Position numbers and translations under genes: made by a program. Below, piece by piece: positions 1 through 6,809 of a stretch of 8,762 nt of DNA (position 1 is its first letter; each line of letters opens with the position of its first letter). The stretch is from IMG/VR virus record IMGVR_UViG_2734482780_000010. One strand, 5' to 3'. The DNA is from a virus (lineage: Duplodnaviria; Heunggongvirae; Uroviricota; Caudoviricetes). The notes under the pieces were generated by a model. The model saw nothing but the letters and a program-made list of their open reading frames with translations. It was not told the origin of the DNA and ran no database searches.

Positions 1-729
1 CTATTTGATCACGCAACACTTTACAGGCGGTACAGGACGATCGCCAGTGATAATGCTGAGGCGTAATTTAAACGGACGTTCTTTCAGACCTTCAAACGGA
101 ACGCATTTAAATTCAAATGCCACTGGCATAATGTCTTTGGTCTTCGCTTCGACAGACTCCATCAGGGAGCGTTTGCCGCTGAAGTCATTATCTTCAAAAT
201 CAGCGGTCTGGTTTGCTTCAATCGTGATTTTACGGACTGCCGCAGCCGCTTTTGTTGCTTGAATGGCGTCACCATTAGCATCAAAGCCCACAAGGTAGTC
301 GGCCCAGTCTTCGATCCATTCTGCCAGTGACTTCTGGGAGTTACGCTCGCCGTTAACAGACAACAGAGCAGAGAACGGTGCTGTCTTTTTCAGTTTGAGA
401 GTGGCAGTGTTATCTGCGTGACCTGGCTCATCAATAGTACCCAGGTTAAGCACACTGACGGCACGCATATTATCGGCATCGATAAAGCAGCGGGTGCCTT
501 CATCTGCAAGATCTTTAGAATAACGGGTAAAATCATCGATGCTGGCAGTGGAAAGTGCACCACGGAAACGGAAGCGATTTAAATTAAATTTTTCCAGATC
601 ATGAATGCGGAAATTCTCAGGCAATGCCACAGCATCGGCACCAATCTTACTGATAATTTCATTAACACCCTGAGCAGAAATAAGGGCATGGATTTGATTA
701 ATTGCGGTTGCGTCTAAGTTCTGAGACAT
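1..729 (-). CDS. DUF2303 family prophage protein (YfdQ-like)
   Basis: Complete 242-aa ORF on the minus strand; start ATG at 729, stop codon at 1-3 exactly at the window edge. Purine-rich SD-like sequence (GTGAGGAC) upstream of the ATG. Identification as YfdQ/DUF2303 is from recalled similarity to E. coli CPS-53 YfdQ, not from a search. Confidence 0.6.
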
Positions 730-952
730 AATAAGTCCTCACTATATAAAGATATTCAGTGATGAGATAAATAATCAGTTTATTACGAACGATATTAACG
801 ACCTGCTGCGCGGAGTTTTCCGTCAGGTTCACCGGCAAGAGTCAGTAATTGTCCCTGGTCTTCCTGCAGAATAGTCAGGCGACCACCGCGATTGACATAC
901 ATCGGCGTTTCGGTGGTGTCTTCTTCGGAAATTTTCCCGCGGTTACCGTTCA

Positions 953-1162
953 GTGAATGCAGCGGTGGAGCATCTTCGCGCACTGGAGAAAAAAGGCGTC
1001 ATCACGATAAAGCGTGGCGTGGCCCGGGGCATCACGCTTCATACCGCGGTGAAGGACGACGACAGCGAGGTGGCCGGGATTATCCGCGCACTGCTTGCTG
1101 GTGAGGAAAACGCCAGGCTGCGTGCAGCCCACTGGTTACATGAGAGGGGGCTGAAAGTATGA
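953..1162 (+). pseudogene. LexA-like gene fragment (recognition helix, wing and linker only); probable remnant
   Basis: Translation '...RGYRSVNAAVEHLRALEKKGVITIKRGVARGITL...' matches LexA residues about 36-70 ('[34 protein letters not shown]', 17 of 26 identical in the core). The frame only opens at 896 after a TGA; there is no ATG, the first possible start is GTG 953 with no Shine-Dalgarno. Helices 1-2 and the whole S24 peptidase domain are absent. The stop overlaps the rusA start as ATGA. Confidence 0.5.
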
Positions 1163-1548
1163 AGCTGATTCTGCCTTTTCCACCCAGCGTGAACACCTAC
1201 TGGCGACACCCCAACAAAGGGGCATTTGCTGGTAAGAGCCTGATAAGCGCGGCGGGGCGAAAATTCCAGAGTGCGGCGTGCACAACAATAGTTGAGCAGT
1301 TACGTCGTCTGCCGAAACCAACGTCGGCACCTGCTTCAGTGGAGATCGTGTTGTTTCCTCCGGATAACCGGATCCGCGATCTGGACAACTATAACAAGGC
1401 GCTGTTTGACGCCCTGACCCACGCGGGTGTGTGGGAAGACGACAGCCAGGTGAAAAGAATGCTGGTGGAGTGGGGACCGGTTATCCCGGAAGGGAAGGTC
1501 GAGATCACTATCAGTAAGTACGAGAAAACGGCGGGTGCAGCCGCCTGA
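1159..1548 (+). CDS. rusA: Holliday junction resolvase RusA (crossover junction endodeoxyribonuclease)
   Basis: 129-aa ORF with RusA-family features (N-terminal 'LPFPPSVNTYWRH', 'RDLDNYNKALFDALTHAGVWEDDSQV' acidic catalytic core). SD GAGGGGG 8-9 nt upstream of ATG 1159. Confidence 0.85.
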   Translation: MKLILPFPPSVNTYWRHPNKGAFAGKSLISAAGRKFQSAACTTIVEQLRRLPKPTSAPASVEIVLFPPDNRIRDLDNYNKALFDALTHAGVWEDDSQVKRMLVEWGPVIPEGKVEITISKYEKTAGAAA

Positions 1549-1567
1549 TCAAGAGGAGAAACGAAGT

Positions 1568-2365
1568 ATGAATAATCTGATGGTCATTGATGGTATTGAA
1601 GTTCGTCGTGATGCTTATGGGCGTTACAGCCTGAACGATCTGCACAGGGCTGCCGGTTCTCTGGATAAGCATAAGCCTGCATTCTGGCTCCGCAATGAGC
1701 AAACTGAACGTTTAATAAGCGAGTTGCAGATTTGCAACTCGGTCAATATAGAGCCAGTTAACGTTATTCGTGGCGGAAATAACCAGGGGACGTATGTCTG
1801 CAAAGAACTGGTGTATGCCTATGCAATGTGGATCAGCCCGTCATTCCATCTGAAGGTGATCCGTACTTTCGATATGGTAACCAGCGCATCGGAAAAATTA
1901 TCCGGGCAGGCTGCTGACAAGATGCAGGCTGGCGTGATTCTGCTGGACTTTATGCGCCGGGAGTTAAACCTGTCTAACTCTTCAGTGCTTGGTGCCTGTC
2001 AGAAACTCCAGGAGGCTGTTGGCTTACCGAATCTGGCACCGCGCTATGCCATTGATGCTCCTGCTGACGCGCCTGATGGCTCAAGCCGTCCCACGCTGTC
2101 ACTGAGTGCACTGCTGAAGCAGTATGGTATCCGCCTGACAGCTAATCAGGCATATCACCAGATGGTGAAGCTGGGGATCGTCGAGCAGCGCGAACGATAC
2201 AGCCGTACCGCTATTAACAACATCAAAAAATTCTGGTCGCTGACAGCGAAAGGCTGCATGTTCGGCAAGAACATCACCAGTCCCGCAAATCCGCGCGAGA
2301 CGCAGCCGCATTTCTTCGAATCCCGATTCCCTGAGCTGTTAAAGCTGCTCGATACCGTTCATTGA
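1568..2365 (+). CDS. KilA-N domain protein with C-terminal antirepressor-like extension
   Basis: ATG 1568 preceded by a strong SD (AAGAGGAG); the track's GTG 1535 start overlaps rusA and is less likely. The N-terminal ~100 aa ('MNNLMVIDGIEVRRDAYGRYSLNDLHRAAG...GTYVCKELVYAYAMWISPSFHLKVIRTFD') is a typical KilA-N (APSES-like) DNA-binding domain. C-terminal half uncharacterised. Confidence 0.75.
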   Translation: MNNLMVIDGIEVRRDAYGRYSLNDLHRAAGSLDKHKPAFWLRNEQTERLISELQICNSVNIEPVNVIRGGNNQGTYVCKELVYAYAMWISPSFHLKVIRTFDMVTSASEKLSGQAADKMQAGVILLDFMRRELNLSNSSVLGACQKLQEAVGLPNLAPRYAIDAPADAPDGSSRPTLSLSALLKQYGIRLTANQAYHQMVKLGIVEQRERYSRTAINNIKKFWSLTAKGCMFGKNITSPANPRETQPHFFESRFPELLKLLDTVH

Positions 2366-2366
2366 G

Positions 2367-3362
2367 GTGACCGTGAGAGCACTACTGACCCCTGAAATTG
2401 CCCCGCGTATGGGGATCGTATTGTTCAGGCCCGGTTCAGAGCTGATGCCCCTGTTTATGCAGGGGCGTGTACTGCTGGAGCCTGAGCCGGAGCATTATTC
2501 ATCTTTCGCCAGTGGTGCCGTTCCCGCGGCATCACAACCGCTGGCGGATGATCCTGCCGTTCGGGCCGTGTTCCGTAATGAGGCAGTGATTCGTCGTGCT
2601 GGTGGGGTGGAATGTCTTGAAAGCTGGTTACTTCGTGAAAAAGGCTGCCAGTGGCCTCATTCCGACTGGCACAGCGAGAACATGACCACAATGCGACACG
2701 CGCCGGGCGCAATCCGTCTGTGCTGGCACTGCGATAATCAGTTACGTGATCAGTTCACGGAGCGGCTGGAATCAATGGCAACGGATAACTGTGCCCATTG
2801 GGTGTTGTCTGTAGTCCGTCGGGATCTCGATTTTAATGATAACCATGCCGTGACAATGCCGGAACTGTGCTGGTGGCTGGTTCGTAATGACCTGGCGGAT
2901 GCCTTACCGGAAAGCGCAGCCCGTAAGGCACTGAGATTACCGAAGTCTGTTTTGCCGTCTGTCACCCGGGAAAGTGACCTTGTGCCTTCGGTTCCTGCCA
3001 CCAGCATTATCCAGGATAAAGCGAAAAAGGTGCTGGCGCTGAAAGTGGATCCGGAGTCGCCGGAGTCTTTTATGTTACGCCCCAAACGTCGTCGCTGGGT
3101 TAATGAACAGTACACGCGCTGGGTTAAGACGCAGCCGTGTGCATGTTGTGGAAAGCCAGCTGATGATCCGCATCATCTGATAGGCCATGGTCAGGGTGGA
3201 ATGGGTACAAAAGCGCATGACCTTTTTGTGCTGCCTTTGTGCAGAAAACACCACGACGAACTGCATGCGGATACCGTGGCATTTGAAGAGAAGTATGGCT
3301 CCCAGCTGGAGCTGATATTTCGTTTTATCGATCGCGCACTGGCGATTGGTGTGCTGGCCTGA
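2367..3362 (+). CDS. DUF968 family prophage protein (YdfU-like) with C-terminal Cys/His zinc-binding HNH-like motif
   Basis: 331-aa ORF starting 1 nt after the KilA-N stop (GTG 2367; alternatives GTG 2373 with the GAGGTG SD, or ATG 2410). C-terminal '[14 protein letters not shown]...[10 protein letters not shown]' cluster. Family assignment is from memory. Confidence 0.7.
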
Positions 3363-3379: not shown

Positions 3380-3763
3380 ATGCGTGATATTCAGATGGTT
3401 CTTGAACGTTGGGGAGCGTGGGCGGCTAATAATCATGAAGATGTGACCTGGTCGTCCATTGCCGCCGGTTTTAAGGGATTAATTCCTTCAAAAGTAAAAT
3501 CTCGCCCGCAATGTTGTGACGATGACGCGATGATCATTTGCGGGTGCATGGCCCGTCTGAAAAAGAACAACAGCGATTTGCACGATTTATTAGTAGATTA
3601 TTATGTAGTCGGTATGACATTCATGTCACTGGCAGGTAAGCATTGCTGCTCTGATGGTTATATCGGGAAAAGGTTACAGAAGGCTGAGGGCATAATTGAA
3701 GGGATGTTAATGGCATTAGATATCCGGTTAGAGATGGATATCGTTGTTAATAACTCTAATTAA
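3380..3763 (+). CDS. quuD: Late-gene antitermination protein Q (QuuD-type)
   Basis: 127-aa ORF beginning '[22 protein letters not shown]...', recognised as the DLP12 QuuD sequence. ATG 3380 with SD GGAGAAAG; the track's upstream start at 3365 is unlikely. Sits immediately upstream of the lysis region. Confidence 0.85.
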
Positions 3764-3952: not shown

Positions 3953-5050
3953 TTAGAACTGGTAAACCAGACCTACAGCAACGATGTCATCAGTGCTTAC
4001 ACCGAGTGCTTTAGTGAAGTCATTTTTGTCAAGCAGGTTGATTTTGTAATCAACGAAAGTAGACATATTTTTGTTGAAGTAATAGGTTGCACCTACATCA
4101 ACATATTTGACTAAGTCCTGATCGCCCCATACTCCAAGATCCTTACCTTTAGATTGCAGGTAAGCAACGGACGGACGCAGACCGAAATCGAACTGATATT
4201 GTGCAACAGCTTCGAAGTTTTGAGCTTTATTAGCAACGAAGTGATCAGCAAATACAGTCATATTCTGGGTTTCAGAATAGGTAGTGGCCAGGTAAATGTT
4301 GTTAGCGTCATATTTCAGACCTGCGGCCCAAACTTCTGCATTTTTACCGGAAGCAAATACTTCAGGAAGAACTTTCCCTGCATTAACTTGAGTGTCGGTA
4401 CGATCAGATTTCGCATAAGTTGCACCGATACCGAATCCTTCGTATTCATAGGTAGCAGAGAAACCGAAGCCATCACCGTTACCTTCGGTGTAGTTATCGA
4501 AATCGCTACGATCGTTTTTGCCTTGGTACTGAGCAGCAAAGTTCAGACCATCAACCAGACCAAAGAAGTCGTTGTTACGATAGGTTGCAACACCAGTGGT
4601 GCGACCAGTCATGAACACATCTGTTTGGGTCCAGGTATCGCCACCGAATTCTGGCAGAACGTCAGTCCACGCACCGATGTCGTATGCTACACCGTAGTTA
4701 CGGCCGTAATCGATTGAGCCGTAGTCACCGAATTTCAGGCCTGCAAATGCAAGACGGGTTTTGTCTTTGGAGGAACCTTGAGATTCAGCGCGGTTGCCTT
4801 TGAATTCATATTCCCACTGACCGAAACCAGTCAGCTGATCGTTGATTTGGGTTTCGCCTTTGAAGCCCAGACGAACATAAGTAGTATCACCATCATCTGC
4901 ATCGTTAGAGGAAAAGTAGTGCTTGGCATTAACTTTCCCGTACAGATCCAGCTTGTTACTGTCTTTATTATAAATTTCAGCTGCCTGAGCAGACATCGCC
5001 ATCAGTACTGATGCAGCTACAGCAGAAATTGCCACTGTTAATTTTTTCAT
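3953..5050 (-). CDS. nmpC: Outer membrane porin, NmpC/OmpD/Lc family (intact)
   Basis: 365-aa ORF with signal peptide '[23 protein letters not shown]|AEIYNK', general porin motifs and C-terminal 'VGLVYQF' ending in Phe. No IS interruption. Lower GC than the flanking phage genes, consistent with a moron. Confidence 0.9.
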
Positions 5051-5854: not shown

Positions 5855-6351
5855 TGCCTCCATCATTACGAAAAGCCGTTGCTGCTGCTATTGGTGGCGG
5901 AGCAATTGCTATAGCATCAGTGTTAATCACTGGCCCAAGTGGTAACGATGGTCTGGAAGGTGTCAGCTACATACCATACAAAGATATTGTTGGTGTATGG
6001 ACTGTATGTCACGGACACACCGGAAAAGACATCATGCTCGGTAAAACGTATACCAAAGCAGAATGCAAAGCACTCTTGAATAAAGACCTTGCCACTGTCG
6101 CCAGACAAATTAACCCGTATATCAAAGTCGATATACCGGAAACAACGCGCGGCGCTCTTTACTCATTCGTTTACAACGTGGGTGCTGGCAATTTTAGAAC
6201 ATCGACGCTTCTTCGCAAAATAAACCAGGGCGATATCAAAGGCGCATGTGATCAGCTGCGTCGCTGGACATACGCTGGCGGTAAGCAATGGAAAGGCCTG
6301 ATGACTCGTCGTGAGATTGAGCGTGAAGTCTGTTTGTGGGGGCAACAGTGA
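5854..6351 (+). CDS. rrrD: SAR endolysin (phage 21 R-type lysozyme)
   Basis: 165 aa; N-terminal Gly/Ala-rich weakly hydrophobic SAR domain '[20 protein letters not shown]' followed by a T4-lysozyme-like domain. Start overlaps the essD stop (TAATG). Confidence 0.9.
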
Positions 6352-6809
6352 GCAGAGTAACCGCGATTATATCCGCTCTGATTATCTGCATCATCGTCAG
6401 CCTGTCATGGGCGGTCAATCATTACCGTGATAACGCAATCGCCTACAAAGTCCAGCGCGACAAAAATGCCAGAGAACTGAAGCTAGCGAACGCGGCAATT
6501 ACTGACATGCAGATGCGTCAGCGTGATGTTGCTGCGCTCGATGCAAAATACACGAAGGAGTTAGCTGATGCGAAAGCTGAAAATGATGCTCTGCGTGATG
6601 ATGTTGCCGCTGGTCGTCGTCGGTTGCACATCAAAGCAGTCTGTCAGTCAGTGCGTGAAGCCACCACGGCCTCCGGCGTGGATAATGCAGCCTCCCCCCG
6701 ACTGGCAGACACCGCTGAACGGGATTATTTCACCCTCAGAGAGAGGCTGATCACTATGCAAAAACAACTGGAAGGAACCCAGAAGTATATTAATGAGCAG
6801 TGCAGATAG
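6348..6809 (+). CDS. rzpD: Rz i-spanin (inner membrane spanin subunit)
   Basis: 153 aa from GTG 6348, overlapping the rrrD stop (GTGA). N-terminal TMD '[18 protein letters not shown]', coiled-coil-rich periplasmic domain. From memory, near-identical to lambda Rz. Confidence 0.85.
6568..6750 (+). CDS. rzoD: Rz1 o-spanin lipoprotein, embedded in the +1 frame of Rz
   Basis: 60-aa ORF wholly inside rzpD in another frame; lipoprotein signal with lipobox 'VVVGC', Pro-rich mature part. Classic embedded Rz/Rz1 architecture. Confidence 0.8.

Follow-up and report, generated by a model that had tools for sequence, protein, structure and literature searches.

A 5'-truncated LexA-like gene upstream of rusA in a defective Escherichia coli prophage and recurrent breakpoints at its edge

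Standalone LexA-like genes and their rusA neighbor

Small standalone LexA-like proteins are encoded by the phages SfV, SfII, SfIV, cdtI and mEp460 and by many Stx2a and Stx2c phages, in which the LexA-like gene adjoins rusA. We found only one experimentally characterized analogue of this gene, gp6 of GIL01, which is a truncated LexA homologue of phage origin and an activator of the late promoter P3 (PMC6182141). GIL01 is a Bacillus tectivirus and gp6 lacks the C-terminal tail of the lambdoid protein; the two may be likened as analogues, and gp6 says nothing on a truncated copy. For the lambdoid protein itself, no functional study was found in the open-access literature. The second system considered here is rusA of the DLP12 prophage of E. 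coli K-12, which is quiescent until an upstream insertion of IS2 or IS10 gives transcription (PMC1636454).

The DNA analyzed here is a stretch of 8,762 nucleotides (hereafter, the window) that, by its gene content, is part of a defective lambdoid E. coli prophage of the SfV/CPS-53/DLP12 type. Its gene order, derived from the list of open reading frames, domain scans and near-identical annotated relatives, is yfdQ (minus strand), a yfdP fragment (minus strand), a LexA-like fragment, rusA, a KilA-N gene, a DUF968 gene, quuD, a porin gene (minus strand), essD, rrrD, rzpD, bor and ybcV. The porin gene (3953-5050, minus strand) is intact with 365 aa and lies between Q and the lysis genes, and an Rz1-type lipoprotein ORF (6568-6750) is embedded in the rzpD frame (6336-6809). 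Both features are typical of DLP12-like prophages. Rfam and tRNA scans of the window gave no matches.

An intact reference prophage was available from E. coli strain RM10466 (locus L001). Its LexA-like gene, hereafter the parent gene (L001 5896-6222, 327 bp), is annotated as a LexA family transcriptional regulator (WP_000210176.1) of 108 aa. It lies between a PerC gene, with which it shares a TAATG overlap, and rusA, with which it shares an ATGA overlap, and it has its own Shine-Dalgarno sequence (GGGGG). The protein matches the complete Pfam LexA_DNA_bind profile (positions 1-65 of 65, E 2.9e-19, protein residues 1-65) and the complete phrog_362 profile (1-106 of 106, E 7e-58), and covers just positions 1-91 of 203 in TIGR00498. 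An AlphaFold (AF2) model built with 22 homologues (pLDDT 81.9) predicts helices at residues 6-22, 28-35 and 40-52, the strands 56-58 and 66-68 forming a wing, a floppy linker, and two further helices at 74-87 and 93-103. The best fold match of the model is the LexA N-terminal domain (1lea, rmsd 1.3 Å, 51% identity), and parent residues 1-68 superpose on E. coli LexA structures (1lea, 3jso) with an rmsd of 1.0-1.3 Å and 50-52% identity. Unlike E. coli LexA, which has an S24 domain, the parent ends in a short C-terminal tail of two helices. LexA Ser39, Asn41, Ala42 and Glu45 have conserved counterparts in the parent, and Glu44 is replaced by Val; the tail includes the string LLAGEEN, placed by the LexA model close to the Ala-Gly cleavage region.

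In annotated phage records with this rusA allele, the LexA-like gene stands beside rusA, and about 50 phage records carry each of the two genes at 94% identity or above. The early-right region of an intact SfV/CPS-53/DLP12-like prophage has the order cro, ymfL, DUF4222, O-like HTH gene, PerC, LexA-like gene, rusA, KilA-N, DUF968, Q; in intact phages these genes lie on one strand, closely packed or overlapping, 3' of cro. From its conservation and context, the parent is therefore an ordinary, independent small gene of its phage group that is already annotated. A preliminary description of the window had considered a LexA-like ORF in this place unusual for the nin region, a view that does not hold: the gene is the normal upstream neighbor of this rusA in at least 50 phage records and in about half (2,801) of the 5,426 complete E. 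coli genomes. The full-length gene that it proposed to look for at the same position in related prophages exists (L001 and others); this gene encodes 108 aa and no S24 domain. The outcome that it had named as refuting, a small gene that is conserved and independent and has a start and Shine-Dalgarno sequence of its own, holds in part: it applies to the full-length parent and not to the window ORF, which is truncated and has neither.

The truncated copy and the deletion at its 5' edge

The LexA-like remnant occupies positions 944-1162 on the plus strand and comprises codons 36/37-108 and the stop codon of a gene of the WP_000210176.1 type (phrog_362). Its frame follows a TGA at 893-895, is open from 896, has its earliest start codon at GTG 953 and ends with TGA at 1160-1162. 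The first part of the open frame (896-943, plus strand) is an antisense stretch of yfdP that is in frame and not LexA-related, and it lies inside the segment 30-945 that corresponds to L001 265-1180. Of the feature previously drawn at 896-1162, 944-1162 is thus LexA-related and 896-943 is not. The remnant residues equal parent residues 36-108 with no differences.

The domain content of the remnant agrees with the preliminary description, according to which it has the LexA recognition helix and wing and lacks helices 1-2 and an S24 peptidase domain. The translation of 896-1159 matches LexA_DNA_bind with E 3e-6 and 27.3 bits, above the Pfam gathering cut-off of 23.7 bits, at profile positions 36-65 of 65 only. 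The remnant therefore has no complete LexA_DNA_bind winged helix: beginning at codon 36, it lacks helices H1 and H2 of the parent model, and it retains helix 3, the wing and the C-terminal two-helix tail. In terms of E. coli LexA, its aligned portion is helix 3 plus the wing. The mechanical 69-aa ORF that starts at GTG 953 (953-1162, plus strand), a codon equivalent to parent Val40, scores 23.1 bits against LexA_DNA_bind, slightly below the cut-off, and matches phrog_362 at positions 41-106 of 106 (E 2.8e-31). Neither the remnant nor the parent has a Peptidase_S24 match in the Pfam scan, and both stay below the TIGR00498 cut-off of 110.95 bits (26.4 bits for the remnant, 67.4 bits for the parent). 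Compared with full-length phrog_362 genes (about 106-108 aa, with their own start and Shine-Dalgarno sequence), codons 1-35, the ATG and the Shine-Dalgarno sequence are deleted; the identity of the retained part and the place directly 5' of rusA, with a 4-nt overlap, are those of this type, as in L001, L003 and the phage records. The earlier idea of a decayed LexA-like repressor gene is accordingly right as to a decayed phage LexA-like gene, and wrong as to its origin from a LexA with an S24 domain, as the parent is a 108-aa standalone winged-helix protein that never had one.

Homologues of the LexA-like gene include many frameshifted or fused alleles, which points to frequent decay, and the 108-aa gene is often inactivated in prophages. 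An A6 run lies at window positions 989-994 (GAGAAAAAAGG), and the +1-frame ORF spans 892-1104. Many database alleles are frameshifted at or near this run, or at codons 61-65, into the frame of that ORF, and their tails read ...HHDKAWRGPGHHASYRGEGRRQRGGRDYP... (e.g. P0094, P0109 and P0115).

The 5' edge of the remnant is a deletion junction, named A|D (944-945), at which the dinucleotide TA is common to both parental sequences, GCGGTTA|GTTGGG in yfdP and GGGATA|CCGTTC in the LexA-like gene. By pairwise BLAST, window 30-945 matches L001 265-1180 (100% identity), a segment within the minus-strand genes yfdP/yfdQ, and window 941-7600 matches L001 6001-12660 (99.87%). Given these two alignments, 4,825 bp of the intact prophage are absent between window positions 945 and 946. 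According to the L001 annotation, the left part of the lost segment held the 5' part of yfdP, two hypothetical genes, a cI-like S24 repressor gene and cro, and the right part held ymfL, a DUF4222 gene, an O-like HTH gene, PerC and codons 1-35 of the LexA-like gene. On the left side, about 49 codons and the stop of yfdP remain (795-945, minus strand); of the L001 gene (1030-1392, minus strand) only 1030-1180 is kept, and its 5' part was lost in the A|D deletion. Where intact phage copies have PerC or Dam upstream of the LexA-like gene, the window has antisense yfdP. In a megablast search with positions 730-1600, the region was found in 2,801 of 5,426 complete E. coli genomes; in nearly all of these the match begins only at window position 941, and genomes with any match have a median of two matching places.

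The same right-hand cut is seen in a prophage of E. coli strain PCP06173, whose pseudogene (L002 6522-6740) is cut at the same nucleotide and followed by rusA, and whose left breakpoint in yfdP is also the same. It differs from the window in a 318-bp internal fragment of ymfL between the two outer breakpoints (L002 6209-6526), in its location at thrW and in its late genes. The ymfL fragment looks like filler DNA caught on joining, or like an intermediate state. PGAP calls the equivalent fragment in PCP06173 a 'LexA family protein, incomplete, missing N-terminus'.

A second deletion junction, E|F (30-32), lies at the left end of the window, where GTA is common to both parents. Window 1-32 is internal intD sequence (L003 2838-2869, 100%), yfdQ begins at base 30, and window 30-878 corresponds to L003 5301-6149; about 2.4 kb is missing, from yfdT to yfdR together with the 3' end of yfdQ. 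The remaining yfdQ (DUF2303; 1-729, minus strand; PF10065, E 1.7e-79) is thereby truncated at its 3' end to 242 aa, vs 274 aa in L001.

Translation signals, rusA and the alternative readings

The rusA gene (1159-1548, plus strand) is intact and encodes 129 aa (PF05866, E 9.5e-15, profile positions 1-123 of 124). Its product aligns to E. coli RusA (1q8r, E 6e-18), keeps the RDLDN and DD..QV motifs, and is predicted to be a full-length RusA Holliday-junction resolvase with acidic catalytic motifs. As claimed in the preliminary description, the rusA ATG (1159-1161) overlaps the TGA of the remnant in an ATGA at 1159-1162; this overlap is ancestral, inherited from the intact gene pair. A Shine-Dalgarno sequence of rusA (GAGAGGGGG, 1142-1150, plus strand) lies 8 nt 5' of its ATG, within the final codons of the remnant. 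At GTG 953, neither a Shine-Dalgarno sequence nor a purine-rich stretch is present in the 25 nt upstream (GAAATTTTCCCGCGGTTACCGTTCA), and a crude consensus scan of window positions 1-1700 detected no sigma-70-like promoter on either strand. Left without its natural upstream promoter by the deletion, rusA is probably quiescent like its K-12 counterpart, although read-through from beyond the left end of the window may reach it. The comparison with K-12, which the earlier description had drawn, is useful as an analogy only: both are intact rusA genes in a defective prophage without a natural promoter, whereas the window RusA is a divergent allele of 129 aa in a different gene context and the window contains no IS element.

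We conclude, with a probability of roughly 0.88, that the feature is a non-functional, 5'-truncated pseudogene of the 108-aa phage gene, produced by the 4,825-bp deletion in a decaying E. coli prophage. A single deletion, with no more than the TA microhomology, fused the middle of yfdP, running leftward, to codon 36 of the LexA-like gene. It took away helices 1 and 2, the ATG and the Shine-Dalgarno sequence, along with the whole immunity and replication region and the promoter region 5' of cro. With helix 3, the wing and the C-terminal tail left, no three-helix winged-helix core should be possible. Because this core cannot form and a translation start signal is lacking, the remnant most likely yields no protein, and it would then be untranslated and without function. 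Initiation at GTG 953, a codon permitted as a start, may still occur in a leaderless or Shine-Dalgarno-independent way; if the remnant, with its conserved C-terminal tail, were translated, an interaction with intact copies from other prophages in the same cell would be conceivable.

Three other readings were weighed against the pseudogene. The preliminary description had offered a leader role, in which the remnant acts as an upstream ORF whose translation hands ribosomes to rusA through the ATGA. The overlap is indeed present, and intact phages, in which coupling is plausible, share it. In the window, however, coupling would need ribosomes on an upstream ORF that has lost its ATG and Shine-Dalgarno sequence and whose GTG 953 is an internal valine codon with no such sequence of its own; the ATGA is inherited, no upstream promoter was detected, and rusA needs no coupling because its own good Shine-Dalgarno sequence precedes the ATG. 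We regard this role as quite improbable. Slightly less probable again is the other function proposed there, that the 69-aa peptide from GTG 953 is a LexA mimic, or else a dominant-negative partner of intact 108-aa copies. Such a peptide would retain the recognition helix and wing, derived from a parent with the LexA-equivalent residues listed above, as well as the conserved C-terminal helices, and other intact copies are often found in the same genome. Against it, helices 1 and 2 of the three-helix bundle are absent, so that by the model the domain should not fold; the peptide would start at an internal valine codon that no Shine-Dalgarno sequence precedes, and its Pfam score lies below the gathering cut-off. 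SOS-box-like sites in the window (CTGT-N8-ACAG, at most one mismatch) are at chance level, with 4 vs 3.06 expected, and give no support for a LexA-operator context.

The third reading, that A|D is an assembly artefact in a chimeric contig, would agree with the fact that none of the 5,426 complete E. coli genomes has the junction in a single aligned piece. Yet the identical junction occurs in independent assemblies, namely an NCBI draft genome (GCA_043676575.1, L004), whose contig has been reported from 4 samples, and a contig (L135) from an ENA gut metagenome, with a background 96.8% identical to the window (3.2% diverged), and the 2-bp overlap is too short to mislead a k-mer assembler. The junction is genuine, and an artefact is the least probable of the readings.

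Recurrent breakpoints in related prophages

The two window junctions, E|F (30-32) and A|D (944-945), lie at sites where breaks recur in other assemblies. The breakpoint scans took the sites of interest as their anchors and included few controls. Site D (GGGATA|CCGTTC, at codon 36/37 of the LexA-like gene) takes part in at least 14 different junctions, exact to the nucleotide, in assemblies from NCBI, Logan, IMG/VR and ENA (L002, L005-L008, L129-L135, L139, L162, L166 and L170). Locus DNA and pattern scans revealed 10 left partners with the right side of D kept, all joined exactly at ...|CCGTTC(A/G)GTG. These partners are yfdP, ymfL, a gene beside yfdP, the O-like gene at two positions, the end of the O-like gene, a cro-like gene, the end of ymfL, a site by yfdT, and codon 55 of rusA (a tandem duplication). 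The microhomology between the parents of these left partners and site D is 0-5 bp. With the left side of D kept (...CTGGGATA|), four more junction types lead to rusA, a tail-fibre gene or morphogenesis genes. Control anchors placed 30 nt left and 29 nt right of D gave no junctions in the scans. Among homologues from the protein search, seven N-terminal fusion partners join the LexA-like gene at codon 37/38, vs six elsewhere in codons 1-50; 10 of 16 junctions fall into one codon bin (P about 4e-12 after correction).

Two observations concern individual hits of these searches. In L133 (1-1057) and in P0063, P0083 and P0089, fusions of the tandem-duplication type link rusA codons 1-55/56 to the LexA-like gene at its codon 27, 38 or 41, and another rusA copy comes next; all three fusions come from drafts with similar locus-tag series, and a common source or an artefact is possible. 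A junction-pattern hit in Sulfuricella (L136) was discarded as a chance match.

Three other sites behave in a similar way. On its left side, site A in yfdP (window 939-945, GCGGTTA|GTYGGGCG) has four or more partners, being joined to D, an internal ymfL site, a Q gene and a baseplate-like gene (L002, L180, L181 and L186); the right side of A occurs in a single junction, with the intD site E (L186). A control scan near site A found no junctions. For site E in intD (GGCGGTA|TCGTTCAG), four or more partners were counted, among them the right side of A. A survey of split alignments over all the loci collected, made without a target site, brought out site G in the DUF968 gene (window 3269-3277, GCGGATA|CCGTGG), which is joined to two independent deletion partners (L186 and L006/L007).

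The motif GG(W)TAYCGT is common to three of the four recurrent sites. In a composite reference of 17.7 kb it occurs four times on the plus strand (E, D, G and a further site, H) and once on the minus strand, and the string GGATACCGT has exactly two copies, at D and G. Site H corresponds to window 3736-3744 in quuD, and no junction was seen there. The A|D junction recreates the motif as GGTTACCGT at window 941-949.

It is about an even bet, in our estimate, that the 5' edge of the remnant is non-random, with a sequence-specific and strand-oriented break or replication arrest driving prophage decay at these sites and the ends being joined through 0-5 bp of microhomology. A nuclease, a topoisomerase or a protein barrier might be responsible. 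The DUF968 protein (window 2367-3362) has a C-terminal HNH-like motif (CxxC...HH...H), and its relatives have a weak Pfam HNHc_6 hit on record; travelling with the LexA-like gene and rusA, it is a candidate nuclease for the recurrent breaks.

Several more familiar causes were considered and set aside. A hairpin or cruciform at D is not indicated, with no significant inverted repeat found there and a DNA fold z-score of +1.25. CRISPR self-targeting, with an ATG PAM and protospacer and a Cas3 nick at D, is unsupported: the type I-E and I-F arrays of the 5,426 complete E. coli genomes hold no spacer matching D in the two frames tested. A mobile element or homing-endonuclease gene at D was rejected, as the four left-side junctions lead to rusA, tail-fibre and morphogenesis genes and to no inserted gene. 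RusA itself prefers cutting 5' of CC (PMC1636454). By eye, neither this preference nor Chi, IS target sites, the gyrase consensus, KpnI-like star sites, the target rules of IS200/IS605 and IS91, or serine-recombinase symmetry explains all sites. A search of the open-access literature for a paper on these recurrent breakpoints found none.

The remnant itself matters little: it is a fragment of a common annotated phage gene and shows no new regulation of rusA. Its intact form is a standalone LexA-like protein that is 51% identical to the host LexA over the N-terminal domain and is always paired with one rusA allele. The part worth pursuing, above the remnant itself, is the reuse of breakpoints. 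If confirmed, a motif-linked return of deletions to endpoints exact to the nucleotide would suggest that the decay of lambdoid prophages in E. coli is shaped by a specific activity that breaks DNA or arrests replication.
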